Shown here: positions 1 to 15,380 of the stretch, piece after piece
Layout of the letters: the number at the start of each line of letters is the position of its first letter
How positions within the stretch are numbered: the stretch's first letter is position 1
From: Candidatus Iainarchaeum sp.
GTDB taxonomy: Archaea; Iainarchaeota; Iainarchaeia; Iainarchaeales; GCA-2688035
Length of the DNA stretch: 32,000 bases
Assembly (NCBI GenBank): GCA_028713935.1
Contig: JAQTNI010000005.1
Coordinates: 1 to 32,000 of the forward strand
Reading direction: 5' to 3'
The notes under the pieces: model-generated
The model's database searches: none
What the model was told of the DNA's origin: nothing
The model's input: the letters and a program-made list of their open reading frames with translations, nothing else
Translations under genes and position numbers: made by a program

Positions 1-200
1 GCGCAGACCAAATCGCTGCAATAAAATACATTGAAAACCAACCAAGCCATCACAACATCAAAGTAGTGCAAGACGCCCCCGCAATCTGATACTCCGTGGC
101 GCGAAGCGCCCGGAGAGATTCACAGGGCCATAGGGGCGGAGCCCCTATTGTCATAGAAATAATTGCCCTTTAAAGCTTTGCCAGCATACTTTTTTAGTGT

Positions 201-270
201 GCGGATTTGATGACCTGACGATGACACAGATCCTTCGGGAAATGATGATAGATGGGCGAACTGATCCGCA
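201..270 (+). ncRNA. Candidate box C/D-like small RNA (copy R1 of the repeated intergenic element)
   Basis: Layout read directly: GCGGAT (201-206), T, TGATGA (208-213, C box), a 12-nt spacer, a degenerate D' (ACAG), the small hairpin CCTTCGGG, ATGATGA (242-248, C'), exactly 12 nt (TAGATGGGCGAA), CTGA (261-264, D box), then ATCCGC (264-269), which pairs with 201-206. A T-rich run follows. No expression or target evidence. Confidence 0.35.
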
Positions 271-298
271 CACAATTATTTTTATTTTGGTTTTCTGA

Positions 299-1951
299 AT
301 GGCTGGAAAAATGAAGCTTAAAGATATAACAGAAGATGACATAACTGATTTTGCTGATTCGGCAGTAATCGCAGGAAGAGGTTTCGACTACTATGAAAGC
401 GGGATGGTAAAATCTTTCCAGGTGGAAGGTGACAGGATTATTGCCAAGGTTTTGGGAAGTTCCGGAAAATACGACCCTGAAGTTTGGATAAAGGATGGAG
501 AACTGGATGCAAGTTGCAATTGCCCTTATGAGGGATATTGCTGCAAACATATAGCGGCAGTGCTGTACAAATGGGTGAACGAAAAAGGAAAGCAATCAAA
601 TAAAAAAACTGAAAATACAAAAATGCCTGATTTGAAAAAAGTGCTTTCTACAGTTGAAAAGCCAAAACTAGAAGAAATACTGAATCAACTTGCTGAAAAA
701 AATGAGGGCACAAAGGCAGACATATTGGCATCAATCGCAAAGCCAGAATCAAATGAAAGCCGTGCCGCAAAAAGCATAATGCAGAAACAAATAATCGAAA
801 CACTTTCCGAAAGAGGCCTTGGCTATTACGAAGTTCACGGAGTAGTAAAGGAACTGGATGCGCTAAAAGAATGCATTCTAAAATTTCCGGCAAAAACAAG
901 AACTGGGCTTTTGCAGGAAATCATAGAAAAAACAATAAAAGTCGGTCAAAATTCTGATGATTCTGACGGGGACATTGGAACATTTATCCAGATGTGCATT
1001 GAAGACCTGGCAAAAGCACTTGAAGAACAAAATTTACCCTTTGAAGAAAAAAAGAAAATATTCTTAGAGAATCTTGATCAATATGAAAAAGACGATTATG
1101 GTTTTGAAGAAGGCCGCCTTGAGTTGGTGTTGCACCTATCAAAATCCAAGGAAGAATTTGAGTTTCTGATTGATGAATTAAAACGCAGAAGCTCGAAAAA
1201 GAAAGAAAAATACGAACGAGGGGCATACGACGAAGCCCTTACCGAAATTTACCGGAAAAGTGGAATGGAAAAGGAATACCTTGAAATGCTTGAAAAAAAC
1301 TGCAAGGAAAATGGAGAATACTTGCCTCTTGCAAAATTCTGGAAAGAAAAAGGCCAAGTAAGCAAGGCAATAAAGATAGCTGAAGAAGGTATAAAGAAAG
1401 ACCGTGCCGATTGGAGTGATAATGCAGGATATGATTTTCTTGAGGCAGTTTACGCATCACAAAAAAATAAAAACGACTTGCTCCGGATAATGATACTTCA
1501 TTTTGAGCAAAGTCCGTCACTCACAAAATACAAAGAAATTCTCGCGCTTTCAAAACACAGCAACATCGATAAAATCAAGGCAGATCTTATTGCCAAAGCA
1601 TCAGACAACGAATTGATTGATATCCTGTTATACGAAGACATGCTTGAAAAAGCGTTTGACGAGGCAATGAAACTTGACGGCGCCTATTCAGACAGGACTA
1701 AGGACAAAGTGGCAAAAGTGCTGATAAAAAAATATCCTGAAAAATCCCTCAAACTATACAAATCAATAGTCAGTGAGTTCATTGGTATGGCCGAAAGAGA
1801 TTCTTACAGAACCGCAGCTATTTACGCAAAAAAGCTCAAAGAATTGTTGCGCAATGAAAACAAAATAAATGAATGGGAAAAATATATTGCGGGAGTACGC
1901 GATGCAAACAGAAGGCGGCCTGCACTAATGCAAGAATTCCAAAGACTTTGA
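299..1951 (+). CDS. SWIM zinc-finger domain protein with a long helical C-terminal region
   Basis: 550-aa ORF with an ATG start. It carries the CxCx6CxH SWIM signature 'CNCPYEGYCCKH' near residue 75. The rest is Lys/Glu-rich and looks alpha-helical. Confidence 0.75.
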   Translation: MAGKMKLKDITEDDITDFADSAVIAGRGFDYYESGMVKSFQVEGDRIIAKVLGSSGKYDPEVWIKDGELDASCNCPYEGYCCKHIAAVLYKWVNEKGKQSNKKTENTKMPDLKKVLSTVEKPKLEEILNQLAEKNEGTKADILASIAKPESNESRAAKSIMQKQIIETLSERGLGYYEVHGVVKELDALKECILKFPAKTRTGLLQEIIEKTIKVGQNSDDSDGDIGTFIQMCIEDLAKALEEQNLPFEEKKKIFLENLDQYEKDDYGFEEGRLELVLHLSKSKEEFEFLIDELKRRSSKKKEKYERGAYDEALTEIYRKSGMEKEYLEMLEKNCKENGEYLPLAKFWKEKGQVSKAIKIAEEGIKKDRADWSDNAGYDFLEAVYASQKNKNDLLRIMILHFEQSPSLTKYKEILALSKHSNIDKIKADLIAKASDNELIDILLYEDMLEKAFDEAMKLDGAYSDRTKDKVAKVLIKKYPEKSLKLYKSIVSEFIGMAERDSYRTAAIYAKKLKELLRNENKINEWEKYIAGVRDANRRRPALMQEFQRL

Positions 1952-1969
1952 AAAATAACTGGTGAGAAA

Positions 1970-2530
1970 ATGAAACAACTGTTTCCCTCATACGCAAATC
2001 CCAATACTTGGAGAACAATTGCCGCAGATTACACTGGCAAAGATGAATGGAAACAAATCCGCCTGAAAATCCTTGAACGCGATAACTATTCCTGCCAGTA
2101 CTGTGGTTTCAAATGCGACAAGTGGCAAATCGTCCACCACATTGACGGGAACCCAAACAACAATCAGCAGTCAAATCTAATGGTTGTCTGCCAAATGTGT
2201 AACCTCATCGAACATGCGGGAATGGGCTGCGTCTTGCAGGGTATTGTTGACCTTTACAAAAAAGCAAAATATGGCCAGAATGAAATTGTTGCAAAGACGA
2301 GGGAACTGCGAGCTGCTGGAAAGATCGATGCTGAAATAATCCGGGAACTCGGCCTTGAGGAAAAAGTCGAATTCAAGCAGGATTGGAATTATCTCAGGCC
2401 ACTTTTTGGCTTTGTGACCTCACGAAAGGCAACCGATGAAAAGACAAATATTGCATTGGCATATCAATGCCGAACAATAAAAAATCAGGCAGGACAAGGC
2501 CAGCAGCAGCGGAATCTCGCCGACTTTTAG
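1970..2530 (+). CDS. HNH endonuclease
   Basis: 186-aa ORF with a GGTGA Shine-Dalgarno-like motif 5 nt upstream. The HNH/zinc motif is 'CQYCGF...HHIDGNPNNN...NLMVVCQMCNLIEH'. It starts 18 nt after the SWIM gene stop. Confidence 0.85.
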   Translation: MKQLFPSYANPNTWRTIAADYTGKDEWKQIRLKILERDNYSCQYCGFKCDKWQIVHHIDGNPNNNQQSNLMVVCQMCNLIEHAGMGCVLQGIVDLYKKAKYGQNEIVAKTRELRAAGKIDAEIIRELGLEEKVEFKQDWNYLRPLFGFVTSRKATDEKTNIALAYQCRTIKNQAGQGQQQRNLADF

Positions 2531-2539
2531 GTTTTCCCA

Positions 2540-2582
2540 TTGTTACATCAAAGTTAACGTTTTGCTTATTTTGATGTAACAA
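2540..2582. repeat. Perfect 13-bp inverted repeat (TTGTTACATCAAA / TTTGATGTAACAA) with a 17-nt spacer
   Basis: Read directly at 2540-2552 and 2570-2582, immediately after the HNH stop codon. Function unknown; it could be a hairpin terminator or a protein-binding site. Confidence 0.6.
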
Positions 2583-2589
2583 CAGGATA

Positions 2590-2626
2590 TATTCGTTATA
2601 TTTATATACTATTCGTTAAACGAATA
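2590..2626. promoter_or_regulatory. Putative operator: three TATTCGTT half-sites overlapping a TATA-like box upstream of the AbiEi-like gene
   Basis: TATTCGTT occurs at 2590-2597 and 2610-2617, with its reverse complement AACGAATA at 2619-2626. The last two form the perfect palindrome TATTCGTT-A-AACGAATA. TTTATATA lies between the sites, and the ATG of the next gene is at 2632. Confidence 0.45.
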
Positions 2627-2631
2627 TAGTC

Positions 2632-3339
2632 ATGGTTGAGTTGACTGAGAAGCGTTTGGTTTCGCTTTTGTGGGTGCTCAAAAACAAAGGGAAAAAGTGG
2701 AGCATTTACGAACTGCGAAGAGGCGCGGCTGCAATGCTCGGAAAAGACGATGCGGTTTACAAGAAAAACACGCGGTTTCCGATAGTGGATTTGGCTCTTA
2801 CTTATGGCCCCACATTTACCTTTGTGAAAGAACTCGAGAAAAATGGTATTTTGGTTAAAGATCCAAAAACCGCGGAGTATACTGTTGCAAAGGCAGGGGA
2901 TGTTGTAAAACTCATTTCCCTTGCAAGGCCGTTTTCAAGCCTTAAAACAATTAACTTTCATTCGCCACTCGATTTCTCGGCAACACTGAAAATGATTAAA
3001 GATTCAAAGCTTGCTTTTGCCTTCACGATGTTTGCTGGAAGCGAGCTTTACAGGCCTTATGTGAAAACTGACCAAGTGCACGTTTACATTGTGGAAGGTG
3101 AAGAGGAAAAATGGGGCAAGTATTTGCTTTCCAAAAATTGCCTTAAGGCACATAAGAGCCAGGCAAATCTTTTCTTGATTCCAACCAGACAGAAAGCTTT
3201 TTTCAGCGAAGCAGCCAAAATAAAAAGATTCTCGATTGTTCCTGCGCCGATTCTTTTGAGCGACCTTTTTAGCTTTGGTGGTTTGGCTGAAGAACAAGCA
3301 AATTTTCTAATGGAAGAATGGCTGAACGGCAGGTTGTGA
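2632..3339 (+). CDS. Putative AbiEi-like wHTH antitoxin / transcriptional partner of the downstream nucleotidyltransferase
   Basis: 235-aa ORF directly upstream (7-nt gap) of an AbiEii-type NTase gene. The N-terminal region looks like a winged helix. The assignment rests mostly on gene order. Confidence 0.45.
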   Translation: MVELTEKRLVSLLWVLKNKGKKWSIYELRRGAAAMLGKDDAVYKKNTRFPIVDLALTYGPTFTFVKELEKNGILVKDPKTAEYTVAKAGDVVKLISLARPFSSLKTINFHSPLDFSATLKMIKDSKLAFAFTMFAGSELYRPYVKTDQVHVYIVEGEEEKWGKYLLSKNCLKAHKSQANLFLIPTRQKAFFSEAAKIKRFSIVPAPILLSDLFSFGGLAEEQANFLMEEWLNGRL

Positions 3340-3346
3340 TTTTCAA

Positions 3347-4090
3347 ATGGAAAAGTTGATGATTGAAAAGTCTGATGAACTCCTTTACGAGTTCTTCCGC
3401 AGGCTTGGGAAAAATGAACTTGAAGAAATCGGTTTGATGGGTGGCTGGGCAGTGCACTACCTTCTCAAAAACAAGGACGTGGTACATATTGGTTCAAGGG
3501 ACATTGACATTTTCTTTGACCCTGCAAAAATAAAGCCGAAAGTTATCGAGGAAAAACTCAAGGGCATGGGTTTTCACCCGCATTCGACTTTCCGCTGGGT
3601 AAGAATCTTCCACAGCGAAACAGAAAAAGAGCTAGGCTTGGAAGAAAGCAAAAAGCACCCGATTTACAATCTTTCATACATTTACTTTGACATTGCAACG
3701 CCGGTAAAAATTGGGCATTCGATGCCGGAGCCATTGCTCAAAAAAGTTTTCAAGAAAGAAAAAGAGCATGTGAAAATCAAGGACATTCAGATACTGGTTC
3801 CTTCTCCCAAAATTATGATTGAAATGAAACTGAAATCCATTCCCGGAAGAAGCGATGCCTTCAAAAGAACAAAAGACATCGCAGACCTCTACGCACTGCT
3901 CAACAGCCATCACGAACTATGGCTGACAAAAAAAGGCGAATTGGCGAAAACAAAAGGATTGAATAAAAAACTTGTAAAGAATTTCAAGGAAGGGCTTGAA
4001 AGATTCAAAATTGACGGAACAATTGCTGCGTCAGCAACAATGTTGAGGATTGGGCAGGACAAGCTCACGGGCCTGCTGGAAAAGATTTGA
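3347..4090 (+). CDS. AbiEii/AbiGii-family nucleotidyltransferase (type IV toxin-antitoxin / abortive-infection toxin-like)
   Basis: 247-aa ORF. The NTase motif is 'GGWAVHYLL...GSRDIDIFF', and the C-terminal motif 'RTKDIADLYALL' is typical of this family. Confidence 0.65.
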   Translation: MEKLMIEKSDELLYEFFRRLGKNELEEIGLMGGWAVHYLLKNKDVVHIGSRDIDIFFDPAKIKPKVIEEKLKGMGFHPHSTFRWVRIFHSETEKELGLEESKKHPIYNLSYIYFDIATPVKIGHSMPEPLLKKVFKKEKEHVKIKDIQILVPSPKIMIEMKLKSIPGRSDAFKRTKDIADLYALLNSHHELWLTKKGELAKTKGLNKKLVKNFKEGLERFKIDGTIAASATMLRIGQDKLTGLLEKI

Positions 4091-4253
4091 CGGGCATATG
4101 CCTAACTCAAGCCATTTATAAACAACAGGCACATACTCCAAACAGCCAATTCAACAGGCTTTTCACGACCAAATTTTAACCACTTCGCCGCATAATGACT
4201 TTTGTATTGTGAGTTTTGCCCAAGAAAGTGAGTAACACCAATAACCAATATCG

Positions 4254-4316
4254 ATGTTCACCTGACGATGACGCCGACCTTCGGGAATGAAGAGAGATGG
4301 GCGAACTGAACCGGAC
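4254..4316 (+). repeat. Copy R2 of the repeated intergenic element (diverged paralog of R1)
   Basis: It shares CCTGACGATGAC, CCTTCGGG and GATGGGCGAACTGA with 214-264. The C-box position reads ATGTTCA (degenerate) and C' reads ATGAAGA. It ends 24 nt before the ATG at 4338. Confidence 0.6.
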
Positions 4317-4337
4317 ACTTAATTTTAAGGGGATTTA

Positions 4338-4880
4338 ATGCTTGATTACTGGCGCACGGAAGATAAACTCGCATTAGGACTAATTATTTTTATTGTTGTA
4401 ATGTTTGTTTTGGCAATAGTAGTGCCTATAATTAACCCAACTGATTTGTCTCCAGGCCAAAACTGCAGTTCAAACGAGCAATGCGTATCCAAAAGATGCA
4501 TAGAAATAAATAAGCAAAAAATCTGCGATAAAAGTAAGATGGGCGAGAAGTGTAAATCTGGCTTGGACTGCTTAGAAGGCTATTGTATTGAGTCAACCTG
4601 TGCACCTGCACCCCAGATTGGGCAAAAATGCGCTGCAGGAGTTCCATTACCAGAGAATACCAAATGCGTTGGCAACACAGTTATAAGTAAAGAATGGTAT
4701 TGCCCAACTTTGGGGCCTTTGTTTTATTTTATAATTGGCATTTTTATTTTTTCAATAATCGGCCTATTGTGTGGGTTAGGTGGATACACTGTTGGTGGTA
4801 AAGAACAGTATTGGCTTACTGTGGCAGGAGCATTTATTTTATCTGGAGCCGCGATATTTGCCATTATTATAGGCTGTTAA
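4338..4880 (+). CDS. Membrane protein with an extracellular Cys-rich domain
   Basis: 180-aa ORF with an AAGGGGA SD-like motif upstream. It has an N-terminal TM helix, a Cys-rich segment (12 Cys in about 80 aa) and hydrophobic C-terminal helices. Confidence 0.6.
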   Translation: MLDYWRTEDKLALGLIIFIVVMFVLAIVVPIINPTDLSPGQNCSSNEQCVSKRCIEINKQKICDKSKMGEKCKSGLDCLEGYCIESTCAPAPQIGQKCAAGVPLPENTKCVGNTVISKEWYCPTLGPLFYFIIGIFIFSIIGLLCGLGGYTVGGKEQYWLTVAGAFILSGAAIFAIIIGC

Positions 4881-4898
4881 AATTAGGGATTTGACAAT

Positions 4899-5204
4899 AT
4901 GCAAGAGGCAGAAATTCTAAAGGAAGCAAAAAGCATTGTTTTTGGCAGACGGGGATTGCTTGATTTATTGCTACCAAGCAAATACAAAACAATCAACAGG
5001 CTTCTTGATGATATCCAAAAATATGATTGGCTAATCATGCAGACTTACGAATTGATTGAAACTCTTAACGTAGAGGAGTGGCAAAGTGGGGACATTCTTG
5101 ACTTAAAAATTTTCAAAAAAAGAATGTTGCGTCTTGCAAAGAGGCTTGAGCAATTCAAAAAACAAAAAATTAGCCTGTTAGAAATAATAGCAAAATCCGA
5201 GTAA
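4899..5204 (+). CDS. Hypothetical protein (helical)
   Basis: 101-aa ORF tightly spaced after the previous gene. No recognisable motif. Confidence 0.4.
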   Translation: MQEAEILKEAKSIVFGRRGLLDLLLPSKYKTINRLLDDIQKYDWLIMQTYELIETLNVEEWQSGDILDLKIFKKRMLRLAKRLEQFKKQKISLLEIIAKSE

Positions 5205-5214
5205 TACTTGAGCA

Positions 5215-5784
5215 TTATGCAAACTTGTTTTTTCTGAACCAGTCAGCGTAACAACGTTCTTCAACAAATTGCCTATGTTCCACATCTGATTTTCGCACTT
5301 TAAATTTCCTTTTGCAATTCTCACAAAACCAACTCTTTGACAGAAGGCTTTTGTTAAATTTTAATTCAACGAAACACTGTGGGCAAAAAGGGCCTGTCAG
5401 TCGCACATATTCCTCTCGAGGAAATAAGTTATCAAAATTTATTGGAACATATGCAATCCATTTCATCCCATCAAATTCAAAAGAATGTTCATTTTCCCTA
5501 GCTATGCCCCCATGTAAAGGAACACCCGCAATATAAAAATTGCCTTTTCTTTGTCTATTCCTGATAAAAACAATCAATAGAACAACAAAGACAGTGAAAA
5601 ACAAAACTAATAATGCCTGCCCAAGCGGAATTGTTGTGTTCCCAATAATTGCAATAGCCAAGCCTAAAGAATCCTTAAAAACGTAAGCTGCACCGGATAG
5701 AACCAAAAAAGCAATAATTAGCTGTACCAAGATACTTTCTGTTATTCCACGAATAACACTTAAAATAAATTTTGAGCCAAACAT
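5215..5784 (-). CDS. Membrane protein with a C-terminal zinc-ribbon
   Basis: The track ORF 5215..5787 starts at TTG, and the ATG one codon downstream (5784) is preferred. It has three predicted TM helices followed by 'CPQC...CENC'. Confidence 0.55.
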   Translation of the reverse strand: MFGSKFILSVIRGITESILVQLIIAFLVLSGAAYVFKDSLGLAIAIIGNTTIPLGQALLVLFFTVFVVLLIVFIRNRQRKGNFYIAGVPLHGGIARENEHSFEFDGMKWIAYVPINFDNLFPREEYVRLTGPFCPQCFVELKFNKSLLSKSWFCENCKRKFKVRKSDVEHRQFVEERCYADWFRKNKFA

Positions 5785-5952
5785 CAAAAAATATCTTTTG
5801 CAACCTTGTTTAAAAATTAACTGAGCAGAAAATAAAGCATTTATATGACCTCGAGTTGTTCAGGGTAATTGTCAGGTCTTCATCCCGGCAAATATTCTTT
5901 GAAAGAATCATTTTTTATGGGTTTTTTATGCCTTTTGCATTCTTGTTTTTTT

Positions 5953-7422
5953 ATGGCTTTTGAGAATCAGGATAAGATTAATTTGCAGTTTAATGTCAGG
6001 AGAAGATTATCTTGGTTAGTTGAATATTTTCAAATAATTGGAACAAACCGCGATGTTTTCAACAAGGTCTTGGGAATAAATTTTGCTTTTTCCAACCTGA
6101 AAAAAGATTCAGATTACAATGAGTACATAGACCGCGCAGAGCAGGATTATTCCTTGGCAATGGTTAAAGAAAAAACAACACAAAATTTTGATTTCCTGAG
6201 AGAGATTGCAAAAAAAAGCTATGAAAAAAGCCAAGTGCTCGTTTCAACAGCAAAAAAAATTTCAATCACAAATTACAAAGACTTTTCCAATCCTGAATTG
6301 AAAATTCTTTTTGACAAAATGGCTTTGGAACTGACAGAATACCAGCCAATAATGTTTCTCATTTTTCCGATAGAGAACTATTTGGAAGAAAGCCTGCGAG
6401 AAAGGATAACTGGCATTTTAAACAAAAAAAATCTGCAAAACAAAATAACAGAGTATCTTCTGGTTTTTTCAATACCAAAAGAAGAACTTGTCGCCATAAG
6501 AGAAGAAAAATCTTTGCTTAAAATTGCGGTTGCAAAAAAACAAGGCAAAAAAATTGAATCCGGATTAGAAGAACACATCAAAAATTTTTCTTGGATTCCC
6601 ACTGATGACCCAACAGGAAAGCCCTGGGCCAAGAAAGATTTGGTTGGCAGGATAAGCTTGTTCTTGCAGTCCAATCCGGAAGAAAAGCTGAAAAAAATAG
6701 AAGCCGGCGAAGCGGAGAGAGAAGAAAAATTTGCTGAATACGCAAAAGAACTTGAATTGGATGACAAAACAATTGAGTTAATTGGGCTTGTCAGGGAATT
6801 TGTTCATTTAAGGAATTACAGAGTAGAATGCTGGGTGCAATCCCAATTCTTAATCAGACAGTTTTTGGAATTTGTGGCAAGCAAGGCAAGGCTTTCCTTT
6901 GATGAATTAATGGCATTAAGCTCTGAAGAAATAAGTGCATTCCTGGAAAGCGGGAAAATAGTTTCAAAACAGGAAATAAAAAAAAGATTGCAGGCTTACG
7001 CGTACGTAAAAATCAAAGAAAAATATACTGCTTTTTTTGGCGAAGATACAAAAAAAATTGCTTCGGAGAAAAAAGAAGAACAAAATCAAACCGAACATGC
7101 GCAGGAAATAAAGGGCAGCATTGCAAACAGAGGAAAAGCAATCGGAATTGTAAGAATAGTGAAAGAACTTTCTGACCTGCCGAAAGTCAAAAAAGGAGAC
7201 ATTCTTGTTGCATCAATGACTCTCCCGCAGTACATCCCTGCAATGGAAAAAGCAGCAGCCTTTATAACAGACGAAGGTGGAATAACTTCACACGCCGCAA
7301 TTATTTCAAGAGAACTTGGCGTTCCCTGCATTGTAGGAACAAAAATTGCAACCAAAACATTCAAAGACGGAGACAAAGTAGAAGTAAACGCGGACAAAGG
7401 AACTGTAACAAAAATAGTGTGA
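5953..7422 (+). CDS. PEP-utilising enzyme mobile (swivel phosphohistidine) domain protein
   Basis: The C-terminus 'GDILVASMTLPQYIPAMEKAAAFITDEGGITSHAAIISRELGVPCIVGT' is the PEP-utilising mobile-domain signature with its catalytic His. The start is uncertain: TTG at 5869, ATG at 5917 or ATG at 5953. Confidence 0.75.
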   Translation: MAFENQDKINLQFNVRRRLSWLVEYFQIIGTNRDVFNKVLGINFAFSNLKKDSDYNEYIDRAEQDYSLAMVKEKTTQNFDFLREIAKKSYEKSQVLVSTAKKISITNYKDFSNPELKILFDKMALELTEYQPIMFLIFPIENYLEESLRERITGILNKKNLQNKITEYLLVFSIPKEELVAIREEKSLLKIAVAKKQGKKIESGLEEHIKNFSWIPTDDPTGKPWAKKDLVGRISLFLQSNPEEKLKKIEAGEAEREEKFAEYAKELELDDKTIELIGLVREFVHLRNYRVECWVQSQFLIRQFLEFVASKARLSFDELMALSSEEISAFLESGKIVSKQEIKKRLQAYAYVKIKEKYTAFFGEDTKKIASEKKEEQNQTEHAQEIKGSIANRGKAIGIVRIVKELSDLPKVKKGDILVASMTLPQYIPAMEKAAAFITDEGGITSHAAIISRELGVPCIVGTKIATKTFKDGDKVEVNADKGTVTKIV

Positions 7423-7431
7423 ATTTTGTAT

Positions 7432-7470
7432 CATCTTTCGGAGCAGTTGGGCGAACTGAGCCATTTTTTG
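7432..7470 (+). repeat. Copy R3 of the repeated intergenic element
   Basis: The sequence is ATCTTTCGGAGCAGTTGGGCGAACTGAGCC followed by TTTTTT. It begins 10 nt after the stop at 7422. Confidence 0.6.
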
Positions 7471-7488
7471 ATTAATTTTTTTGCATGC

Positions 7489-7530
7489 AAATAATCCTTT
7501 GCCTTTCGTAGCAGTTGCTGAACTGATGGG
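7489..7530 (+). repeat. Copy R3' (degenerate) of the repeated intergenic element
   Basis: The sequence is AAATAATCCTTTGCCTTTCGTAGCAGTTGCTGAACTGATGG followed by a T-run. It keeps the CAGTT/AACTG inverted repeat. Confidence 0.5.
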
Positions 7531-7591
7531 TTTGTCGTTTCTTTTTTTGCCAATAAAAATGGTTAAATTAGGTTTGTGGCAGCATTAAATT

Positions 7592-8191
7592 ATGGAACTT
7601 GAGTTTAAAAAGAACAGGATTTTTCTTGAAAGGGAGCTTTCAAATCTTGACAAATTAGTTGTCAGGTTCACAAAAATTTTGCACAGGCTTGGAATTGATT
7701 ATGTTATTATTTCTGGTTACATTGCAATTTTGTTTGGCAGAAGCAGGCATACTGAAGATGTTGACCTGTTCATTGAAGAAATGCCATTTGAAAAATTCAG
7801 GCAATTCTGGCAAGAGCTTGACAAAGAAGGCTTTGAGTGCATGAACACTTCGAATGTTGAAGAAGCTTACACGGATTATTTGAAAGAAATGCTTGCATTG
7901 CGTTTTTCTGAAAAAGGAATGATTCAGCCAAATTTTGAATTAAAATTCCCAAAAACAGATTTGAACCAATACTCCCTGAAAAACAAGATAATTGTCGAAA
8001 TAGGAAAAGAAAAGCTTAACACTTCAAAAATTGAATTGCAAATTGCCTTCAAGTTGTATCTTGGTTCTGACAAGGATATTGAGGATGCTGTTCACTTGTG
8101 GGAAATGTTTAAAGGCAGTTTGAATATGGAATTATTTAATGGGTTTACAAAGAGATTGAAAGTAGAAGGTAAAATAAGATTGTTAAAGTGA
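7592..8191 (+). CDS. Nucleotidyltransferase-fold protein (AbiEii/MNT-like)
   Basis: 199-aa ORF. The motif 'GYIAILFGRSRHTEDVDLFIEE' fits the G-x-n-DxD NTase pattern, and the C-terminal 'DKDIEDAVHL' resembles the AbiEii C-terminal motif. Confidence 0.5.
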   Translation: MELEFKKNRIFLERELSNLDKLVVRFTKILHRLGIDYVIISGYIAILFGRSRHTEDVDLFIEEMPFEKFRQFWQELDKEGFECMNTSNVEEAYTDYLKEMLALRFSEKGMIQPNFELKFPKTDLNQYSLKNKIIVEIGKEKLNTSKIELQIAFKLYLGSDKDIEDAVHLWEMFKGSLNMELFNGFTKRLKVEGKIRLLK

Positions 8192-8197
8192 TTTTTT

Positions 8198-8356
8198 ATG
8201 GAAAAATTCCCAAAAATTGATTTGTCTGAATTGAAAAAAGAAATGGAATTAAACAGGCAGCAAAGGCTGGAGTTTGTAAGGGTGTATGCGGAATGGCTCA
8301 AAAAAACTCCAAACAAAGTCTGGAGCAAACAACAGGCAAAATACATGGATAAATAA
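8198..8356 (+). CDS. Small hypothetical protein (52 aa), not in the ORF track
   Basis: An ATG at 8198, 7 nt after the NTase stop, opens MEKFPKIDLSELKKEMELNRQQRLEFVRVYAEWLKKTPNKVWSKQQAKYMDK. The stop is at 8354-8356. Confidence 0.3.
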   Translation: MEKFPKIDLSELKKEMELNRQQRLEFVRVYAEWLKKTPNKVWSKQQAKYMDK

Positions 8357-8386
8357 GCTAGTTTTTCTACTTTTTTGGTTTTGTTT

Positions 8387-9118
8387 ATGGCTGATGTGAA
8401 AAAAATTGTGAAAGAAAGTTATTCCAAAATAGCAAAAACAGGCCGCGGTTGTTCCTGCAATGCAAGCAAAGAAGATATTTCAAAGCAGATTGGTTACAGT
8501 GATTCTGAATTGGCCAATGTGCCTGAAGCCAATATGGGCCTTGGCTGTGGCAATCCGACTGCTCTTGGGGAAATAAAACAAGGGGACACTGTTCTTGACC
8601 TTGGAAGCGGTGCCGGAATCGATTGTTTTTTGGCTTCAAAAAAAGTCGGAGAAAAAGGGAAAGTAATTGGAGTTGACATGACTGAAGCAATGGTTGAAAA
8701 GGCAAGAAAAAACGCCGAAAAGTATAGCTACAAAAACGTTGAATTCCGCCTTGGAGAAATTGAAGCCTTGCCAATTGAAGAAAAATCAATTGATGTTATC
8801 ATCAGCAACTGTGTGATTAATCTTTCCCCTGACAAGGAAAAAGTCTTCAAAGAGGCGAGGCGCGTTTTAAAAGAAAACGGCAGAATGTATGTTTCCGACA
8901 TTGTTCTTTTGAAAGAGCTTTCGAAAGAGCAGAGAAAGGACAAAAAATTAATTGCAGGCTGTGTTGGCGGTGCGCTTTTGAAAGAGGATTACCTTGCAAT
9001 AATAAAAAAAGCAGGCTTGAAAGCAAAAATCCTGCACGAAGACAAGCAAATAAGCAAGACACAATACAATGGCATCGCGCTTGAAAGCCTAAAACTGGAA
9101 ATTACGCTTCAGAAATAA
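8387..9118 (+). CDS. arsM: Arsenite S-adenosylmethionine methyltransferase (ArsM-type class I methyltransferase)
   Basis: The SAM motif is '[11 protein letters not shown]'. The three Cys motifs characteristic of ArsM are present: 'GLGCGNP', 'SNCVINL' and 'AGCVGGA'. The ATG at 8387 is preferred over the TTG at 8375. Confidence 0.8.
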
Positions 9119-9150
9119 TCCTTCGCCTTTCGACGCCAGTTTTGGATGTT
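9113..9150 (+). repeat. Copy R5 (degenerate) of the repeated intergenic element
   Basis: AAATAATCCTTCGCCTTTCGACGCCAGTT closely matches 7489-7516 apart from a few differences. The 3' box has decayed. It overlaps the arsM stop. Confidence 0.45.
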
Positions 9151-9479
9151 CATGCAAGCGCTGTTGCTTTTTCCGGCTCGATTTTTTCCATGGCATTTTT
9201 CATCAGCTTGTTGTCCAATTCAATTAGCTGTTTAACAACTGGGTTTTTTTTGTTGATTTTGTACATTTGTGCCTTGCCAACCTTGCGCGTGAAAGTAACC
9301 ACGCCTGTTTCTTCTAAGTTGTTCCAAAAGCCTTCCAAAGTATTCCAGGAAACATTGGCGTTCTTGCCAATGTCCTTTTTTGAATAGTCAAAAATGTCAT
9401 TCTCTACTAAAAAGTCAAGCACCCTGATTATTGGATAGTCCCCAAAAAATTCCACAAACAAAGATTTATCTTCACTCAT
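9150..9479 (-). CDS. Winged-helix transcriptional regulator
   Basis: 109-aa ORF. 'IIRVLDFLVENDIFDYSKKDIGKNANVSWNTLEGFWNNLEETGVVTFTRKVGKAQMYKIN' is a typical small archaeal wHTH. Confidence 0.65.
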   Translation of the reverse strand: MSEDKSLFVEFFGDYPIIRVLDFLVENDIFDYSKKDIGKNANVSWNTLEGFWNNLEETGVVTFTRKVGKAQMYKINKKNPVVKQLIELDNKLMKNAMEKIEPEKATALA

Positions 9480-9591
9480 AAATTACCAACAATTATCAAT
9501 TTTATATTTGTTTATAACTTTGTTTATAATCTAGTATAACACAATTACAATATAAATAAGTTTAAATATTTTACTCTTAATATTTCAATAA

Positions 9592-9867
9592 ATGAAACTT
9601 TCTTCTTTTGAGATTAGGCGGAGAATTTTGCATAAAATGGTTAGGCATAATTTGTGGGGCAGCAAGCACACTGCCTTTGATAATATTCCAAAAGGCCTTC
9701 CAAAAGAGCTCTGGAAGGATGTCAAAAACGAGCTGGAACAGCTTATAAGAGAAGGTTTTGTTGTAAAAAAGCCCACTGGCTATGGTTTGCATGTTTCACT
9801 TAATGTTGGCATGAAGGCAGAGATTGAGAAAATAATTTTTGATAATCATTCAAGTTTGGAGGCGTAA
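9592..9867 (+). CDS. Hypothetical small protein (possible wHTH)
   Basis: 91-aa ORF with an ATG start, transcribed divergently from the wHTH regulator. 'ELEQLIREGFVVKKPTGYGLHVSLN' resembles a wing. Confidence 0.4.
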   Translation: MKLSSFEIRRRILHKMVRHNLWGSKHTAFDNIPKGLPKELWKDVKNELEQLIREGFVVKKPTGYGLHVSLNVGMKAEIEKIIFDNHSSLEA

Positions 9868-9869
9868 GA

Positions 9870-10160
9870 ATGTGTGGGTGGACACACATAATTTTGGAAG
9901 CTTACTGTAGCAGAAAGTGGAGCACAAAAAAGGACAAGCATCTTTACAAATTGGTTGATTCAAAGAGCCTTAAAATGGAGAAAGAGCCTAATCCCAATTA
10001 TGACCCGAATTATAAGACTCCGAAAAAGCCAAGCTATTGCCCAAATCTTCCGCGCTACATTTGCCTTGAAAAGAATTGCCATCACTTGGCATACACTGAT
10101 GCTTTGGAGGGAGACTATCACTTTCTGGACAAAAAATATAACAAAAGCAAGCGTAAATAA
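9870..10160 (+). CDS. Hypothetical Cys/His-containing small protein
   Basis: 96-aa ORF with a GGAGG SD-like motif upstream. It starts 3 nt after the previous stop. Confidence 0.4.
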   Translation: MCGWTHIILEAYCSRKWSTKKDKHLYKLVDSKSLKMEKEPNPNYDPNYKTPKKPSYCPNLPRYICLEKNCHHLAYTDALEGDYHFLDKKYNKSKRK

Positions 10161-10165
10161 TTTTT

Positions 10166-10200
10166 TGCCCTCGGGGGCAGTTGGGCGAACTGAGCCACTT
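10166..10200 (+). repeat. Copy R4 of the repeated intergenic element
   Basis: The hairpin TGCCC-TCGG-GGGCA is followed by GTTGGGCGAACTGAGCC, then a T-rich tract. It starts 6 nt after the stop at 10160. Confidence 0.6.
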
Positions 10201-10270
10201 GTATTTTTAATTATTTTTTGGCGTTTTTTCCTTCGATAGCTTTTTATTTGGCAAATTCCTTTTTGTTGGC

Positions 10271-12400
10271 ATGCAGAAAAAGGTTTTTTTTGCTTTTTTT
10301 CTCTGCTTGGCTGTCCTTTTCAGCGGCTGTGCAGAGCAGCCACAGGGAGACCCAAACAGCAATCCATTTGGCGGAAATCCCGCTGGGCCTGGGCAGTATG
10401 ATCCGCAGGGAGAACATTCTTCCTGCACTGATGATTCCCAGTGCATTATTGACAATTGTTACGGCTGCATTTTCAAAGGAGAAAAATTAACTGACCAGTG
10501 CGCCCAGATTGTTCCTCCTGATTGCAAATGCATTCAGGGTTATTGCAATCCAGGGCCTCCGGGAAATCAAAAACCAGGAGAACAGCCAAATACAGGGCCT
10601 GGCCAGCCTCAAATAAATCCAAATGCGCCTCTGCCTGGCCTGCCAGAAAATTTTCCTGAAAGCAAATTTGTTTCAAAAAAATTGGATGCTGTTGAAATAA
10701 CTTATTTTTCAAGCGCAATTGCAAGGGGCCTGACTGAAAATGGGGCTGATTTTTTCATTGGTCTCAAAAACACTGGAACTTCAAAGGCAAGCCTTTGCTT
10801 TGATTCGATGAATGGGGAATTCAAAAAGCCAATTCCAGAATGGAACCTGCATTTTTTTTCAATGCAGGACCCGCCAGTTGAAATCGCTCCAGGCGAAGAA
10901 AAAAGATTATGGTATTTTTCTTCTGTTGATGCTGAAGGGACTTTTGCTTTGACTTTCAAAATCTGGAACTGCGGAGATAGTGCTGATTCAATTGAAATTC
11001 CAGTCACTTTCGGTTCAACAGGCGAGAGCTTTTTTGGAAAAGAAACAAGTTATATTTCAGGAACCGTAAAGGATGAGCAGGGAAGCCCTGTTGCAAATGC
11101 GCGTGTAAGCGCAATAATGAACTGTGGCCGATTAAATTTTTACGGCAGTGCAGATGATTCCGGCAATTATTCAATTCCCCTTCTTGGAATGGAGGACATT
11201 GATGCAATTTATCTCGGAAAGCAGCTTGCCTGCGATTCAACTGATTATTTTGTTTCAGTGGAGCAGGAAGGTTATGAATATTATTTCAAGGGCAATATTG
11301 CCCCAACCAGAAAAGATCCGAAAAATCTTGACATTGTTTTGAAAAAGAAAATTTCTTCGGCAAATTATTCCCTTGAATGGGAAAAGCAAGTTCAGGACAA
11401 CTTCGGTTTTTTTTGGGTAAAACCCTCTTCTGATTGGAGTGTTTTTGCTGCAGCTCAATCAAAGCACCCCCCTGAACTGAACAAGCCTGCAAATTTTTAC
11501 CTGTTTAATTCCCAAGGGGGGATTTTGTGGAAACAGCCAACCGGCAATGAATGCTGGGGAATTGCAATTGCAAAAGACGGAAGTGAGATTGTTGCGGGCT
11601 GCCATGATGGAAAAGTTTATGCTGTTGACAAAAGTGGAAAGCTCCTCTGGACTTCTGATTTTTCTTCAATGGTGAGGAGCGCATGCATTTCCAATGATGG
11701 AAGCAAGGTTCTTTCAGGAGCAATGCCTGCACTGCTTGATGCAAAAACAGGTGCAAAGCAGGAGATTTCCTGGCAGGGAGACTGGCTTAGGAACTGCGCC
11801 TTTTATCAGGATGATTCCGGCTTTGTCGCAGGCGCAAGAGAATTAACTGGGTTTGATTTTTCAGGCAAGCAGGAATGGCGCCAGATAATTGGAGAATTCC
11901 CCATGTTCTTGGCTGTTGATTCCCAGAACAATGTTTTTGCATCGGGAAAAAGCAGGACTTTTTTCTCATTTGATTCACAGGGAAACCTGCGCTGGAAACA
12001 CAGGATTCCGGATCATACTGCAGGAGCAGGGGCTGCAACTCCTGATGGAAGCAGGATTGCATTAGGCACTGTAGGCGGAATGGTTTATCTTTTTGACCTG
12101 CAGGGAAATCTGCTCTGGAAAAGGGGTACAATGGCTTTTCCAAAATGGGGCGCAACAGGGCATAATGCTGTTGCAATTTCAGAGGATGGAAAAATAATTG
12201 TTGTTGGGACAGCGCCGCAAAACTGCATTACTGCTTTCAATGATAATGGCACAATAATCTGGGAAAAATGCTTTGAACCCGATGCCAGCAACAAAGACCT
12301 TTTGCTTGGAGTAACAAACATTCAAATTTCAAAAGACAAAAAACAGATAATTGCGGCTTACGGAGACAATTACATCAGGAAATTCACTTTGCAGGAATAA
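10271..12400 (+). CDS. Secreted lipoprotein with a Cys-rich module, a carboxypeptidase-regulatory-like domain and a PQQ/BamB-like beta-propeller
   Basis: The signal/lipobox is 'FFLCLAVLFSGC'. 'SGTVKDEQGSPVANARVSA' suggests the carboxypeptidase-regulatory-like domain. Propeller-type motifs repeat: 'GKVYAVDKSGKLLW', 'FSFDSQGNLRWKH', 'GMVYLFDLQGNLLWK' and 'ITAFNDNGTIIWEK'. Confidence 0.75.
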   Translation: MQKKVFFAFFLCLAVLFSGCAEQPQGDPNSNPFGGNPAGPGQYDPQGEHSSCTDDSQCIIDNCYGCIFKGEKLTDQCAQIVPPDCKCIQGYCNPGPPGNQKPGEQPNTGPGQPQINPNAPLPGLPENFPESKFVSKKLDAVEITYFSSAIARGLTENGADFFIGLKNTGTSKASLCFDSMNGEFKKPIPEWNLHFFSMQDPPVEIAPGEEKRLWYFSSVDAEGTFALTFKIWNCGDSADSIEIPVTFGSTGESFFGKETSYISGTVKDEQGSPVANARVSAIMNCGRLNFYGSADDSGNYSIPLLGMEDIDAIYLGKQLACDSTDYFVSVEQEGYEYYFKGNIAPTRKDPKNLDIVLKKKISSANYSLEWEKQVQDNFGFFWVKPSSDWSVFAAAQSKHPPELNKPANFYLFNSQGGILWKQPTGNECWGIAIAKDGSEIVAGCHDGKVYAVDKSGKLLWTSDFSSMVRSACISNDGSKVLSGAMPALLDAKTGAKQEISWQGDWLRNCAFYQDDSGFVAGARELTGFDFSGKQEWRQIIGEFPMFLAVDSQNNVFASGKSRTFFSFDSQGNLRWKHRIPDHTAGAGAATPDGSRIALGTVGGMVYLFDLQGNLLWKRGTMAFPKWGATGHNAVAISEDGKIIVVGTAPQNCITAFNDNGTIIWEKCFEPDASNKDLLLGVTNIQISKDKKQIIAAYGDNYIRKFTLQE

Positions 12401-12452
12401 AAAAAAGAAAAAATTCCAGCCCCATAAGAGCTGGTTGGTTTGCTGTTTTATT

Positions 12453-13328: not shown

Positions 13329-13541
13329 TATTATCACCCCCTTTACACTATAAAAAAGATAGTAGGCTCTTGTTTTAAAAGGCTTTTTTTTGTTAGCAAA
13401 AAAGCTAAAAACATTTTTTTCCAAAAAAACTTGTTTTATTTTTATGGCGAGCATGGCTTTAAATTCTTATTGCAGCACTATTTTTTTATCAATTTTTAAT
13501 GCTAATAATGCGAAATTTTGTGCTATTTGGGGGTTTTTTTG

Positions 13542-13979: not shown

Positions 13980-14033
13980 AAAAATTCTTTTTTTTTAGTT
14001 TTTAATCAGGGAGAATTTTCTCTCTCGCTGGAT

Positions 14034-14993: not shown

Positions 14994-15098
14994 AAATTAA
15001 CAATTGTAAAAATCTATTAATAAATTTTTCCTTTTATTCTTAAAATTCTTAAAAATTATTATTAATGTGGCAAGCAGCTATTAGTAGGTGGTGGTAAT

Positions 15099-15179: not shown

Positions 15180-15201
15180 ACGCAAAACTTGGGGTGAAAA
15201 A

Positions 15202-15285: not shown

Positions 15286-15293
15286 GCGATTGT

Positions 15294-15371: not shown

Positions 15372-15380
15372 GTGGAACTT

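Follow-up and report, generated by a model that had tools for sequence, protein, structure and literature searches.

Duplicated, pseudogenised and MITE-like copies of C/D-box sRNA genes have been described in Pyrobaculum (Lui et al. 2018, PMC6009581), and archaeal integrated elements are often tandemly stacked and have often lost their integrase (PMC8371274). Here we analyzed a 32,000-nucleotide stretch of a Candidatus Iainarchaeum contig (the window) together with loci of relatives (L numbers). An initial annotation had described six copies of a strand-specific intergenic repeat (R1–R5 and R3′) punctuating blocks of accessory genes; its interpretation is partly supported by our results. R1 is a conserved, covarying C/D-box sRNA gene, and R2–R4 derive from such a gene and are without the features needed for sRNA function.

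A conserved C/D-box sRNA gene

The repeat had not been recognised as a known element, but R1 is a textbook archaeal C/D-box sRNA, with boxes C, D′, C′ and D, guides of 12–13 nt and a k-turn-closing stem:

155..196, plus strand: promoter region of the sRNA gene, with TATA-like TTTAAAG at 169-175, ~22 nt upstream of the stem start
197..273, plus strand: R1, intact C/D-box sRNA gene (fold, homologs, covariation)
197-205, plus strand: 5′ stem, whose 3′ partner is 265-273
207-213, plus strand: box C, UUGAUGA
214-226, plus strand: D′ guide
227-230, plus strand: box D′, CAGA
231-241, plus strand: hairpin
242-248, plus strand: box C′, AUGAUGA
249-260, plus strand: D guide, UAGAUGGGCGAA
261-264, plus strand: box D, CUGA

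The left edge of the window lies 154 nt upstream of the conserved promoter–sRNA unit, which starts at 155. Positions 155–284 are the sole stretch conserved with the nearest relatives (identity 91.5% in L152/L155, 81% in L142 and 78% in L058), the flanks on both sides being different. Conserved counterparts of R1 occur in 4 Iainarchaeal MAGs and at about 26 loci from metagenomes; 21 intact homologs have its box layout, terminal stem and 12/13-nt guides. Most loci were ascertained by patterns requiring intact guide sequences; the sRNA was also found without using its own sequence, beside a conserved neighbour gene in L166–L173. R1 as a whole folded better than shuffled sequence (z = −3.7), the only copy to do so. 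Within the terminal stem, 6/6 pairs carried compensatory changes, and pairing stood at 81.7% as against 53.9% in shuffles, none of 500 of which reached the observed value. Covariation, proposed earlier as a test of all six copies, was borne out for the R1 stem, although the six do not form one element. The Rfam search suggested at the same time returned no family at threshold for R1, only weaker matches to sR18, sR2 and sR1 (best 23.5 bits versus 45). R1 belongs to an sRNA family specific to Iainarchaeia (DPANN).

The D guide found its best match in a haloarchaeal rRNA operon at the segment flanking the A-loop (11/12 paired), and is complementary to UUCGCCCAU of bacterial-type 23S. This match falls within 23S helices 90–93, a known methylation hot spot (PMC7994747). 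R1 may direct 2′-O-methylation of 23S rRNA beside the A-loop, as predicted on non-cognate rRNA. The D′ guide CUGACGAUGAC, itself box-like, gave no target in the haloarchaeal rRNA operon.

Copies derived from the sRNA gene

The 12-mer TGGGCGAACTGA had exactly four matches in the window, at 253, 4298, 7448 and 10182, all on the plus strand and all (4/4) intergenic on the ORF map; the chance expectation was 0.01 (mean over shuffles), and 0/100 shuffles reached four. The copies and a further fragment are:

4168..4321, plus strand: R2 module, full-length but decayed copy of the sRNA gene with its promoter region (alignment with L155b, L139 and L133b)
5857..5926, minus strand: lone 5′ portion of an sRNA gene of L075 type (13.6 bits, E = 0.006; aligns with L075 2289-2358 and the flank upstream of it)
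7420..7464, plus strand: R3, short relic, a foreign arm ATCTTTCGGAGC fused to the 21 nt at the sRNA's 3′ end, AGTTGGGCGAACTGAGCCA
7488..7527, plus strand: R3′, tandem neighbour of R3, AAATAATCCTTTGCCTTTCGTAGCAGTTGCTGAACTGA, probably a decayed relic, its 5′ arm common to R4 and R5
9112..9136, plus strand: R5, possible relic, 5′ arm AAATAATCCTTCGCCTTTCG only, overlapping the ArsM stop codon
10152..10199, plus strand: R4, short relic closing the island on its far side (29.0 bits), overlapping the stop (10158-10160) of ORF 9870-10160

The repeat as first described was confirmed in part: four strong plus-strand, intergenic copies stand. In a leave-one-out profile, R3 and R4 scored 27–29 bits (26.6 and 29.0), whereas R3′ is marginal because its 7.1 bits compare with 7.0 for the best shuffle, and R5 (4.2 bits) was at chance level. 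The membership of R3′ and R5 rests mainly on the common stretch AAATAATCCTTyGCCTTTCG; R5 has no support beyond the arm it has in common with R3′ and, in L075, a decayed R3-type stretch 3′ of the ArsM homolog. Nor do the copies share one architecture, as had been claimed, since the inverted repeat CAGTT-N5-AACTG (N4/5) occurs only in R3, R4 and R3′ and is replaced by AGAT...AACTG in R1 and R2. In R1 and R2, the structure read earlier as a UUCG hairpin is part of a C/D sRNA, in which it forms the apical hairpin separating box D′ from box C′. No short hairpin in the copies proved more stable than shuffled sequence (fold z = −0.7 to +1.1). As the initial annotation had noted, T-rich tracts follow R1, R2, R3 and R4. 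R1 and R2 end 26 and 20 nt before the ATGs at 299 and 4338, respectively. Copies are confined to the 10 kb adjoining the sRNA gene; none was found in the remaining 22 kb, where many genes end.

The similarity of R1 and R2 spans ~60 nt rather than 12, which had been overlooked. R2 scored 52.7 bits in the sRNA profile search and, over 4254–4321, is 97% identical to the intact L075 gene. Its TATA-like box has become AAGAAAG and its C box AUGUUCA (4254–4260), and the 5′ stem strand is missing. Both guides and boxes D′, C′ and D (4261–4309) are intact, although guide conservation in relics is partly built in because the search patterns demanded intact guides. The module is 80–82% identical to modules 3′ of unrelated genes in relatives. 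The minus-strand fragment, also overlooked and situated ~70 nt upstream of ORF 5215-5787 on the same strand, holds a promoter, the stem strand GCCGGG, box C GAUGAAGA and a degenerate D′ guide; its stem strand is complementary to the R2 3′ flank ACCGGAC.

R3 and R4 match sRNA model positions 53–73 only (the last ~21 nt, identical between the two), joined to another conserved arm. R3 starts on the stop codon (7420–7422) of ORF 5869-7422 and is 95% identical to L162 1926-1962 and 91% to L137 6258-6290, each preceded by a different gene. R4 ends 72 nt before a conserved beta-propeller gene (10271). Decay of the core is seen in L137, L155 and L075, which have the variant GGGCGGACTGA.

The accessory island and its counterparts

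Between the sRNA gene and the beta-propeller gene lies a ~10-kb island whose cargo consists of defence, toxin and resistance genes, in multi-gene blocks with their own promoters and genes on both strands:

274..290, plus strand: T-rich tract following the sRNA and marking the island's left edge
274..10270, no strand given: accessory island, from the sRNA gene to the conserved beta-propeller gene, in three blocks
299-4090: block 1, SWIM/PDC-S62, HNH and an AbiE-like pair
4338-7422: block 2, a small membrane protein, two unknowns and a PEP-utiliser-domain protein
7592-10160: block 3, a DUF2204 nucleotidyltransferase pair, ArsM, an HTH protein and two small ORFs

The left edge is placed at 274–290 because homology with relatives stops there; the window and L155 diverge directly after ...CACAATTATTTTTA. 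A Logan contig from the same sample begins at window 10270, and contigs often break off at copies (assembly breaks).

Copies had been suspected to coincide with synteny breakpoints, and comparison with relatives' loci bore this out. The site directly 3′ of the sRNA gene is polymorphic by lineage, being empty in some and filled with 1–10 kb of accessory genes in others. The island is missing from L058, where the sRNA lies about 0.18 kb from the homolog of window 13518–13979; measured likewise from the sRNA 3′ end, the distance rises to ~1 kb in L138 and L147, to 3.9 kb in L137 and to 13.3 kb in the window. In L172 and L173 the sRNA is abutted on its 3′ side by housekeeping genes; L166 has a TA pair and ArsM at this place. 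The neighbouring beta-propeller and SIMPL genes are conserved across L166–L171. The same relic types bound different cargo: L133 is collinear with the window over the AbiE pair and R2 module, other genes precede the R2 module in L155 and L139 and the R3 unit in L162 and L137, and ArsM recurs in L075, L155 and L166. Extra copies are almost always directly oriented, 14/15 lying on the sRNA strand in a tally over 10 loci. L148 carries a perfect 58-nt internal duplication.

Origin of the island and comparison with known systems

In our preferred reading, to which we give a probability of roughly 0.55, R1 is a working methylation-guide sRNA gene and the other copies are dead relics of that gene, left when foreign DNA recombined into the chromosome at it, mainly through a putative, unproven tyrosine-type recombinase. 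An element carrying a copy of the gene's 3′ part would integrate at that gene, one junction rebuilding it and the other keeping a partial direct repeat. Repeated integrations would accrete blocks in tandem, each with a relic at its end, while selection would hold the resident gene and let the relics and any integrase genes decay. Site-specific integration would be the main route, and homologous recombination between copies could afterwards reshuffle the blocks. Related loci offer candidates for the enzyme: in L144 the sRNA is followed, ~50 nt beyond its 3′ end, by the start of a gene with a Phage_int_SAM_4 domain (39.3 bits, cut-off 27), L161 has a truncated homolog, and L133 a distant one beside a relic. 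All three show an N-terminal domain only, the available sequence ending before the catalytic halves. Searches of the window, island included, turned up no recombinase of any type, and no virus or plasmid searched carried an sRNA-like attP. These observations count against the preferred reading, as do the heterogeneity of relic types and the multi-gene, two-stranded blocks between them.

Related-strain DNA with its own copy of this highly conserved sRNA locus and adjacent cargo could also have entered by homologous or homology-facilitated illegitimate recombination, with no dedicated recombinase; a Campbell-type single crossover would duplicate the homologous segment, and one copy would decay afterwards. 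R2, full-length and carrying its promoter and ~90 nt of upstream sequence, fits such an insertion, or plain duplication, better than a 3′-end att site. It is also chimeric, its 3′ part 97% L075 and its 5′ part like other loci's modules, as a crossover in the conserved D′ guide would leave it; the split, inverted L075-type halves at 4261–4321(+) and 5857–5926(−) indicate recombination between copies, and the L148 duplication and integrase-free window agree. We nevertheless hold this account unlikely, since R3/R4-type relics keep only ~21 nt of the gene, fused to an arm conserved across genomes that resembles an att arm rather than residual homology; integrase-type genes adjoin sRNA copies at three loci, and the far-end relic sits exactly on the island border.

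Quite improbable, in our view, is an active integron-like platform in which the sRNA 3′ half is the primary attachment site and the copies are selected functional sites at which a trans-encoded recombinase inserts, excises and shuffles cassettes. The array does have a same-strand repeat after each accessory block, cassettes travel with their downstream site (AbiE with the R2 module, ArsM with an R5-type copy), CAGTT-N4/5-AACTG of R3, R4 and R3′ could be a recombinase core, and integron arrays such as CALINs commonly lack a nearby integrase (PMC9668308). However, no IntI-like protein was found in the window, the attC-type R″/L″...L′/R′ structure is absent, blocks are multi-gene with own promoters and minus-strand genes, and little is left of R5 and R3′; with relic cores decaying in relatives, no selection is evident. 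Least probable is that the short copies are functional RNA modules from the sRNA 3′ end, acting as terminators, 3′-end signals or 3′-UTR protein-binding elements, with their border position a by-product. R3, R4 and R5 do start at or ≤5 nt from plus-strand stop codons with T tracts after them, and the L137 copy begins 17 nt past one. Yet gene ends in the other 22 kb lack copies, hairpins are thermodynamically ordinary, cores decay, no ORF precedes R3′, the L162 copy lies ~500 nt from the nearest ORF end, and the short copies have no C box and hence no k-turn for L7Ae. Among the roles originally suggested, an independent small RNA suits R1 and cassette junction scars suit R2–R4, while a terminator or 3′-UTR module is unsupported.

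R1 and its homologs share the box order of archaeal C/D sRNAs (Rfam sR18, sR2 and sR1; Pyrococcus, Sulfolobus and Pyrobaculum families): RUGAUGA, 12–13 nt guide, CUGA, short loop or hairpin, UGAWGA, 12-nt guide, CUGA and short terminal helix; they differ in falling below every Rfam threshold, as a family specific to Iainarchaeia. Pyrobaculum likewise has degenerate sRNA-like copies and pseudogenes in unstable, non-syntenic regions, and rearrangement breakpoints within sRNA genes (PMC6009581). Its MITE-like copies are dispersed and retain both box types, C and D, as well as conserved terminal inverted repeats, whereas those here lose the C box and stem, are 3′-biased and directly oriented, and cluster beside the parent gene, bounding cargo genes. 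As in integron arrays and CALINs, including archaeal integrons (Ghaly et al. 2022, PMC9668308), a one-strand repeat, often overlapping a stop codon, punctuates accessory cassettes in an array without a nearby integrase; unlike them, the locus has neither an attC secondary-structure signature nor IntI, its blocks are multi-gene and of mixed orientation, and its repeats visibly derive from the neighbouring RNA gene. With tRNA/tmRNA-gene islands it shares an intact RNA gene at one end, direct partial 3′ copies inside and at the far end, a site empty in some relatives, defence, TA and resistance cargo, and integrase-type genes beside the site in some genomes. It departs from them in its target, a C/D-box sRNA gene, for which our literature search found no report as an island target. 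Further differences are that the window's island lacks an integrase, that one relic, R2, copies the entire gene and its promoter, and that the search for a free element with attP found none. If the preferred reading is true, the locus is organised like a tRNA-gene island, at a target of a new class.

A box C/D sRNA gene and the repeat derived from it

The window contains exactly four copies of the 12-mer TGGGCGAACTGA (positions 253, 4298, 7448, and 10182), each of them on the plus strand and where the initial annotation had placed the four strong copies of an intergenic repeat, R1 to R4. By chance, 0.01 matches are expected on average, and not one of 100 dinucleotide shuffles reached four. The ORF map confirmed that all four copies are intergenic, and a T-rich tract follows 3′ of each, as had been described. 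The uniform architecture proposed for them, a hairpin plus a CAGTT...AACTG box, did not hold: R1 and R2, which have ~60 nt in common, read AGAT...AACTG; R3 and R4 have 21 nt in common, both with a small inverted repeat; and none of the small hairpins of the copies folded better than shuffled sequence. Scored with a leave-one-out profile, R3 and R4 reached 27–29 bits. R3′, annotated as a degenerate copy, was borderline, with 7.1 bits against 7.0 for the best shuffle, and the claim for R5 was not borne out, its 4.2 bits being at chance level.

Judged by its boxes, guides, and terminal stem, R1 (197–273) is a canonical archaeal dual-guide box C/D sRNA.

Elements of the R1 gene, in 5′ to 3′ order, as read from the sequence
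Plus strand, 5′ strand of the 9-bp terminal stem, GUGUGCGGA, read with its flanks
207–213, plus strand, box C, UUGAUGA
Plus strand, D′ spacer of 13 nt, CCUGACGAUGACA
227–230, plus strand, D′ box, CAGA (CUGA in most homologs)
Between D′ and C′, plus strand, UUCG hairpin
242–248, plus strand, C′ box, AUGAUGA
Plus strand, D guide of 12 nt, UAGAUGGGCGAA
261–264, plus strand, box D, CUGA
After box D, plus strand, 3′ strand of the terminal stem, UCCGCACAC

The fold of R1 lay far above those of shuffled sequences (z = −3.7). Rfam returned sub-threshold matches solely to archaeal C/D families (sR18, sR2, and sR1), none of the curated C/D families being reached at gathering score (sR18, 23.5 bits against a threshold of 45; sR2, 22.6 against 42). 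Assignment of the repeat to a known Rfam family was rejected on these below-threshold scores, and R1 is in the box C/D class but in no curated family. A tRNA-like or tRNA-fragment origin of GCAGTTGGGCGAACTGAGCCA was also rejected: the segment is without T-arm geometry, and neither ARAGORN nor Rfam finds anything there. The window holds no L7Ae, Nop5, or fibrillarin gene.

Among the matches listed in a pattern scan of GTDB genomes, R1-type RNAs were found in three “Candidatus Iainarchaeum” MAGs and one uncultured archaeon; the many matches in GC-rich bacteria were chance matches, and those in Natrinema were coding sequence. A metagenome scan gave 31 loci (numbered with an L, as are all related loci compared here), of which 26 hold a real R1-type sRNA. 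The other five (L140, L157, L158, L154, and L160) were dropped as coding-sequence coincidences, the first three lying in what we take, from our own reading of the translation, to be secY-like genes. Box-by-box alignment was possible for 21 distinct intact copies. Their box C is AUGAUGA in 8 and another [A/G/U]UGAUGA in 5, and in the remainder it carries one or two substitutions or is shifted by one position (L058). Box D is CUGA in 21/21, a count fixed by the patterns used for the search; the L166 lineage, found independently, has the D box CAGA, which guide-based patterns would miss. The sRNA was also found again without use of its own sequence, beside a conserved neighbour gene in other lineages. 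All six pairs of the terminal stem show compensatory changes across the 21 intact homologs, with 81.7% of cells paired versus 53.9% in shuffles (0/500) and 25–49% in slid registers. The internal hairpin is compensatory on inspection as well (GC-GCAA-GC, CC-UUCG-GG, CUC-GCAA-GAG). Among the nearest relatives, conservation is limited to window positions 155–284 (promoter, sRNA, and T-tract; 91.5%), and the flanks differ on both sides.

Within the left flank, the minus strand of 1–160 is GC-rich and folds into nested hairpins (AUAGGGGC-ucc-GCCCCUAU; CUCCG..GGCGC-uuc-GCGCC..CGGAG) with an MFE of −60.6 kcal/mol (z = −2.96), and the structure continues past the left end of the window. It has no Rfam match bar one spurious one and is absent from the nearest relatives, in which a small ORF forms the upstream flank; it may belong to a further RNA gene or element.

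Archaeal C/D guides select their target nucleotide by its distance from box D, 5 nt upstream. The R1 D guide can pair with UUCGCCCAU(U), which lies immediately 3′ of the A-loop of 23S rRNA; we confirmed this segment in bacterial-type 23S rRNA. In a haloarchaeal rRNA operon, the UUCGCCCAU segment is the single best D-guide site, with 11 of 12 positions paired. From this comparison with bacterial-type and haloarchaeal 23S rRNA, we infer that the D guide targets the A-loop region; for the D′ guide, no convincing target was identified. The predicted site of 2′-O-methylation is the C opposite the fifth guide nucleotide counted from box D (UUCGC*CCAU, about E. coli C2558). Helices 90–93 of 23S rRNA are a known hot spot of archaeal methylation (PMC7994747). 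A conserved dual-guide sRNA, probably directed at the 23S A-loop region, would mean that guide-directed rRNA methylation has been retained in reduced DPANN genomes, and the R1 family is an addition missing from Rfam.

Decayed and partial copies of the sRNA gene

The copies other than R1 differ in how much of the gene they keep.

Copies and fragment of the sRNA gene in the window
4168–4321, plus strand, R2, ~150-nt decayed copy of the whole sRNA gene
5857–5926, minus strand, isolated 5′ sRNA fragment
7420–7464, plus strand, R3, partial copy
7488–7527, plus strand, R3′, degenerate copy (borderline score)
9112–9136, plus strand, R5, annotated as a degenerate copy (chance-level score)
10152–10199, plus strand, R4, partial copy

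The resemblance of R2 to the sRNA gene extends well beyond the 12-nt motif. Its promoter region is still recognisable, with the TATA-like box changed from TTGCCCtttAAAG to TTGCCCaagAAAG, and both guides are preserved, as are boxes D′, C′, and D; box C has become AUGUUCA, and the 5′ stem strand is lost, leaving no complementary strand. From CCTGACG on, R2 matches the intact L075 MAG gene at 97% identity, and the R2 module recurs behind unrelated genes in L155, L139, and L133. R3 and R4 retain just the last ~21 nt of the sRNA gene (AGTTGGGCGAACTGAGCCA), joined to a different arm, and a ~37-nt unit of this type is found behind different genes in L162 and L137 at 91–95% identity. A 5′ arm that overlaps stop codons, AAATAATyyTTyGCC..TCG, is common to R4, R3′, and R5, and R3, R4, R3′, and R5 contain no C or C′ box. 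Since R2 to R5 all lack both a working C box and a terminal helix, they are unable to form a C/D RNP.

The fragment at 5857–5926 carries a promoter, a stem strand, box C, and a degenerate D′ guide. Because its stem strand is complementary to the 3′ flank of R2, the fragment and R2 look like separated halves of one L075-type gene, mutually inverted. In L138, a similar 5′ fragment lies on the far side of a Fic gene. The fragment in the window is ~70 nt upstream of, and in the same orientation as, the minus-strand ORF 5215–5787, and this displaced relic may now be its promoter or leader.

Relic cores have also decayed in relatives, where they read GGGCGGACTGA, GGGCAGGCTGA, and GGGCGGACCGA. We counted 15 extra copies in 10 loci, 14 of them directly oriented. 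A clean truncation of the copies at CTGACG was considered and rejected as partly an artefact of the search pattern, R2-type copies retaining a mutated C box. In L148 (1199–1386) and also in L143, L151, and L156, a second copy without C box or stem lies ~60 nt 3′ of the intact sRNA, an arrangement kept across these four contigs of one clade. The two L148 copies have a perfect 58-nt internal segment in common, running exactly from CTGACG to box D, and this tandem pair reflects recent duplication or gene conversion.

Many contigs end within ~200 nt of a copy, and Logan contigs of the source sample break at window positions ~126, 5869, and 10270. The sRNA and its relics explain assembly breaks at these sites. 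They also provide a short search handle for variable islands in fragmented DPANN MAGs; to our knowledge, the mobile elements and defence islands of DPANN archaea are barely charted.

[quoted passage not shown]

R1 stands at one border of a block of accessory genes and R4 at the other, right before a conserved beta-propeller gene, with R2 and R3 internal. This is the border layout of an RNA-gene-targeted island of the tRNA/tmRNA type: the intact RNA gene on one side, its 3′ part repeated in direct orientation on the other. The site is empty in L058, L172, and L173 and filled in the window, L166, L137, L155, and L075. In L172 and L173, housekeeping genes directly abut the sRNA 3′ end; in L166–L171, the same site holds a TA pair, ArsM, and small ORFs. 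The distance from the sRNA to the homolog of window 13518–13979 is ~0.18 kb in L058, ~1 kb in L138 and L147, 3.9 kb in L137, and 13.3 kb in the window. As the beta-propeller and SIMPL genes (10271–13454) are conserved neighbours when loci are sampled via the neighbour gene, the island proper spans ~274–10270. Archaeal core sequence, collinear with L058, makes up the right 18 kb of the window (thermosome, RIO kinase, class-I aminoacyl-tRNA synthetase, deoxyhypusine synthase, and a tRNA). Base composition was discarded as an island marker, a GC content of 0.35–0.37 in part versus ~0.40 in the core being too weak.

Cargo of the island
299–2530 with the HNH gene, plus strand, SWIM-domain protein of 550 aa, full-length match to the PADLOC candidate defence PDC-S62 (E = 3e-30)
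2587–4090, AbiE-like pair, below Pfam thresholds
Within the island, PEP-utiliser-domain protein, by annotation
Within the island, DUF2204 nucleotidyltransferase pair, by annotation
Within the island, arsenite methyltransferase (ArsM), above the NCBIfam cut-off

The blocks hold 4–6 genes each, minus-strand genes included. The AbiE-like pair and the R2 module (4168–4309) both match L133 with their order kept, so that cassette and downstream relic travel together. ArsM is also present in L075, L155, and L166, and the ORFs flanking sRNA loci in relatives include Fic toxins and PLD-family proteins, the Fic genes lying beside sRNA copies. The HNH endonuclease gene, which begins 18 nt after the SWIM gene, matches ZorE2 HNH models, and the two genes may together form a defence system. 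An inverted repeat, TTGTTACATCAAAG ... TTTTGATGTAACAA, occupies 2549–2586 (plus strand), immediately before 2587, where the AbiE-like homology to L133 starts; it may be an operator, a terminator, or the 5′ boundary of the cassette.

Elsewhere in the window, a second block missing from L058 lies at ~14000–17680, between a conserved small gene and the RIO kinase gene. It encodes a double HTH regulator of the AsnC type on its minus strand, along with a B12-binding radical SAM protein and an ORF of 153 aa, and has no flanking sRNA-derived copies. A tRNA gene at 24308–24474 (plus strand; Rfam, 52 bits; missed by ARAGORN) has a ~95-nt intron after the anticodon loop, and L058 has a tRNA at the syntenic position. 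A 73-nt direct repeat (22529–22601 and 24479–24551, plus strand; 79% identical), which starts CTGCCCTTTTCT and contains a palindrome, directly follows the thermosome stop codon with one copy and the tRNA 3′ end with the other. The two copies bracket the minus-strand ORF 22692–24017 (AAA_17 domain) and may mark a second repeat-bounded insertion, beside a tRNA gene. Positions 28400–32000 have no Rfam match and no listed ORF above 137 aa on either strand; this is probably one long gene running past the right end of the window, because such ORFs go unlisted.

Origin of the island and comparison with known systems

We consider the relics to be recombination scars of the sRNA gene, with a probability of roughly 0.8. 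The pattern is that of tRNA- and tmRNA-gene islands, since it combines an intact RNA gene at the border, direct partial 3′ copies, an empty or filled site, and accessory cargo. That the scars arose by site-specific integration at the 3′ part of the sRNA gene, followed by decay, has in our estimate somewhat better than an even chance. Repeated integration there would build the island, and the relics would decay afterwards.

The window itself contains no tyrosine recombinase by XerD jackhmmer, a three-recombinase profile, or box-II regular expressions. Genes with an integrase-type N-terminal (SAM-like) domain, of which the N-terminal part alone was read, lie directly beside sRNA copies in three loci. 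The gene in L144 (oriented 8757–9143) starts ~50 nt 3′ of the sRNA and scores 39.3 bits against a cut-off of 27. L161 (123–452) has a homolog, 63% identical and truncated at 109 aa, and L133 (original 2622–3114) a distant one that adjoins a relic. No usable relatives of the L144-type ORFs were found in the protein database, in PDB (profile search), or on free elements (IMG/VR proteins and tblastn of plasmid and phage records); judged by this N-terminal part, they may be a new family of recombinases from DPANN mobile elements. The search for a free element with a matching attP was likewise negative, IMG/VR pattern scans giving chance matches inside coding sequence only. In archaea, integrated elements that have shed their integrase and elements stacked in tandem are both known (PMC8371274); this, together with the integrase-type genes beside sRNA copies, favours site-specific integration.

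Homologous recombination between copies would be a second process at work on the island and also competes seriously with site-specific integration for the role of primary process, as R2 is a relic of the whole gene and the gene halves are chimeric and inverted. An RNA-level role of the copies as terminators or 3′ UTRs, to which their position behind genes and before T-rich tracts might point, is unlikely given that they are confined to the island, are not structurally special, and decay. An active integron-like system at the sRNA gene is an improbable alternative; no defining integron feature was found. An attC site is an imperfect palindrome, R″-L″...L′-R′, of ~55–140 nt that ends in GTTRRRY. 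We rejected this identity for R3 and R4, which contain GTTGGGC but have no upstream RYYYAAC partner or L boxes and do not fold above shuffles. Integrons rely on an IntI-type integrase and carry single-ORF, same-orientation, promoterless cassettes, whereas the window has no tyrosine recombinase, multi-gene blocks, and minus-strand genes. The Iainarchaeal lineage is not covered by the archaeal integron paper (PMC9668308). Improbable in our view is an Iainarchaeal form of cassette capture in which an uncharacterised tyrosine-type recombinase, the L144-type protein, would recognise TGGGCGAACTGA, spanning D guide and box D, and the relics would still be usable att sites. Defence, TA, and resistance cassettes could then be inserted, excised, and exchanged between genomes, a functional integron analogue on a guide-RNA gene.

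Recombination scarring of the sRNA gene, the reading that we prefer, can be set beside the dispersed MITE-like sRNA elements of Pyrobaculum calidifontis, which keep box C and box D in every copy, flanked by conserved terminal inverted repeats; degenerate sRNA copies in Pyrobaculum lie in unstable regions (PMC6009581). The relics in the window, by contrast, are without C box and inverted repeats, and they cluster on a single side of the parent gene, none of them more than 10 kb away.

In the literature that we searched, no C/D sRNA gene is described as an island anchor. The classic anchors of mobile DNA are RNA genes, namely those for tRNA, tmRNA, and a few bacterial sRNAs, and ffs. The sRNA anchor proposed here comes closest to tRNA and tmRNA genes and to RNA genes of bacteria, for example ffs, and a box C/D guide-RNA gene in this role would, if confirmed, be a new class of integration target, in DPANN archaea.
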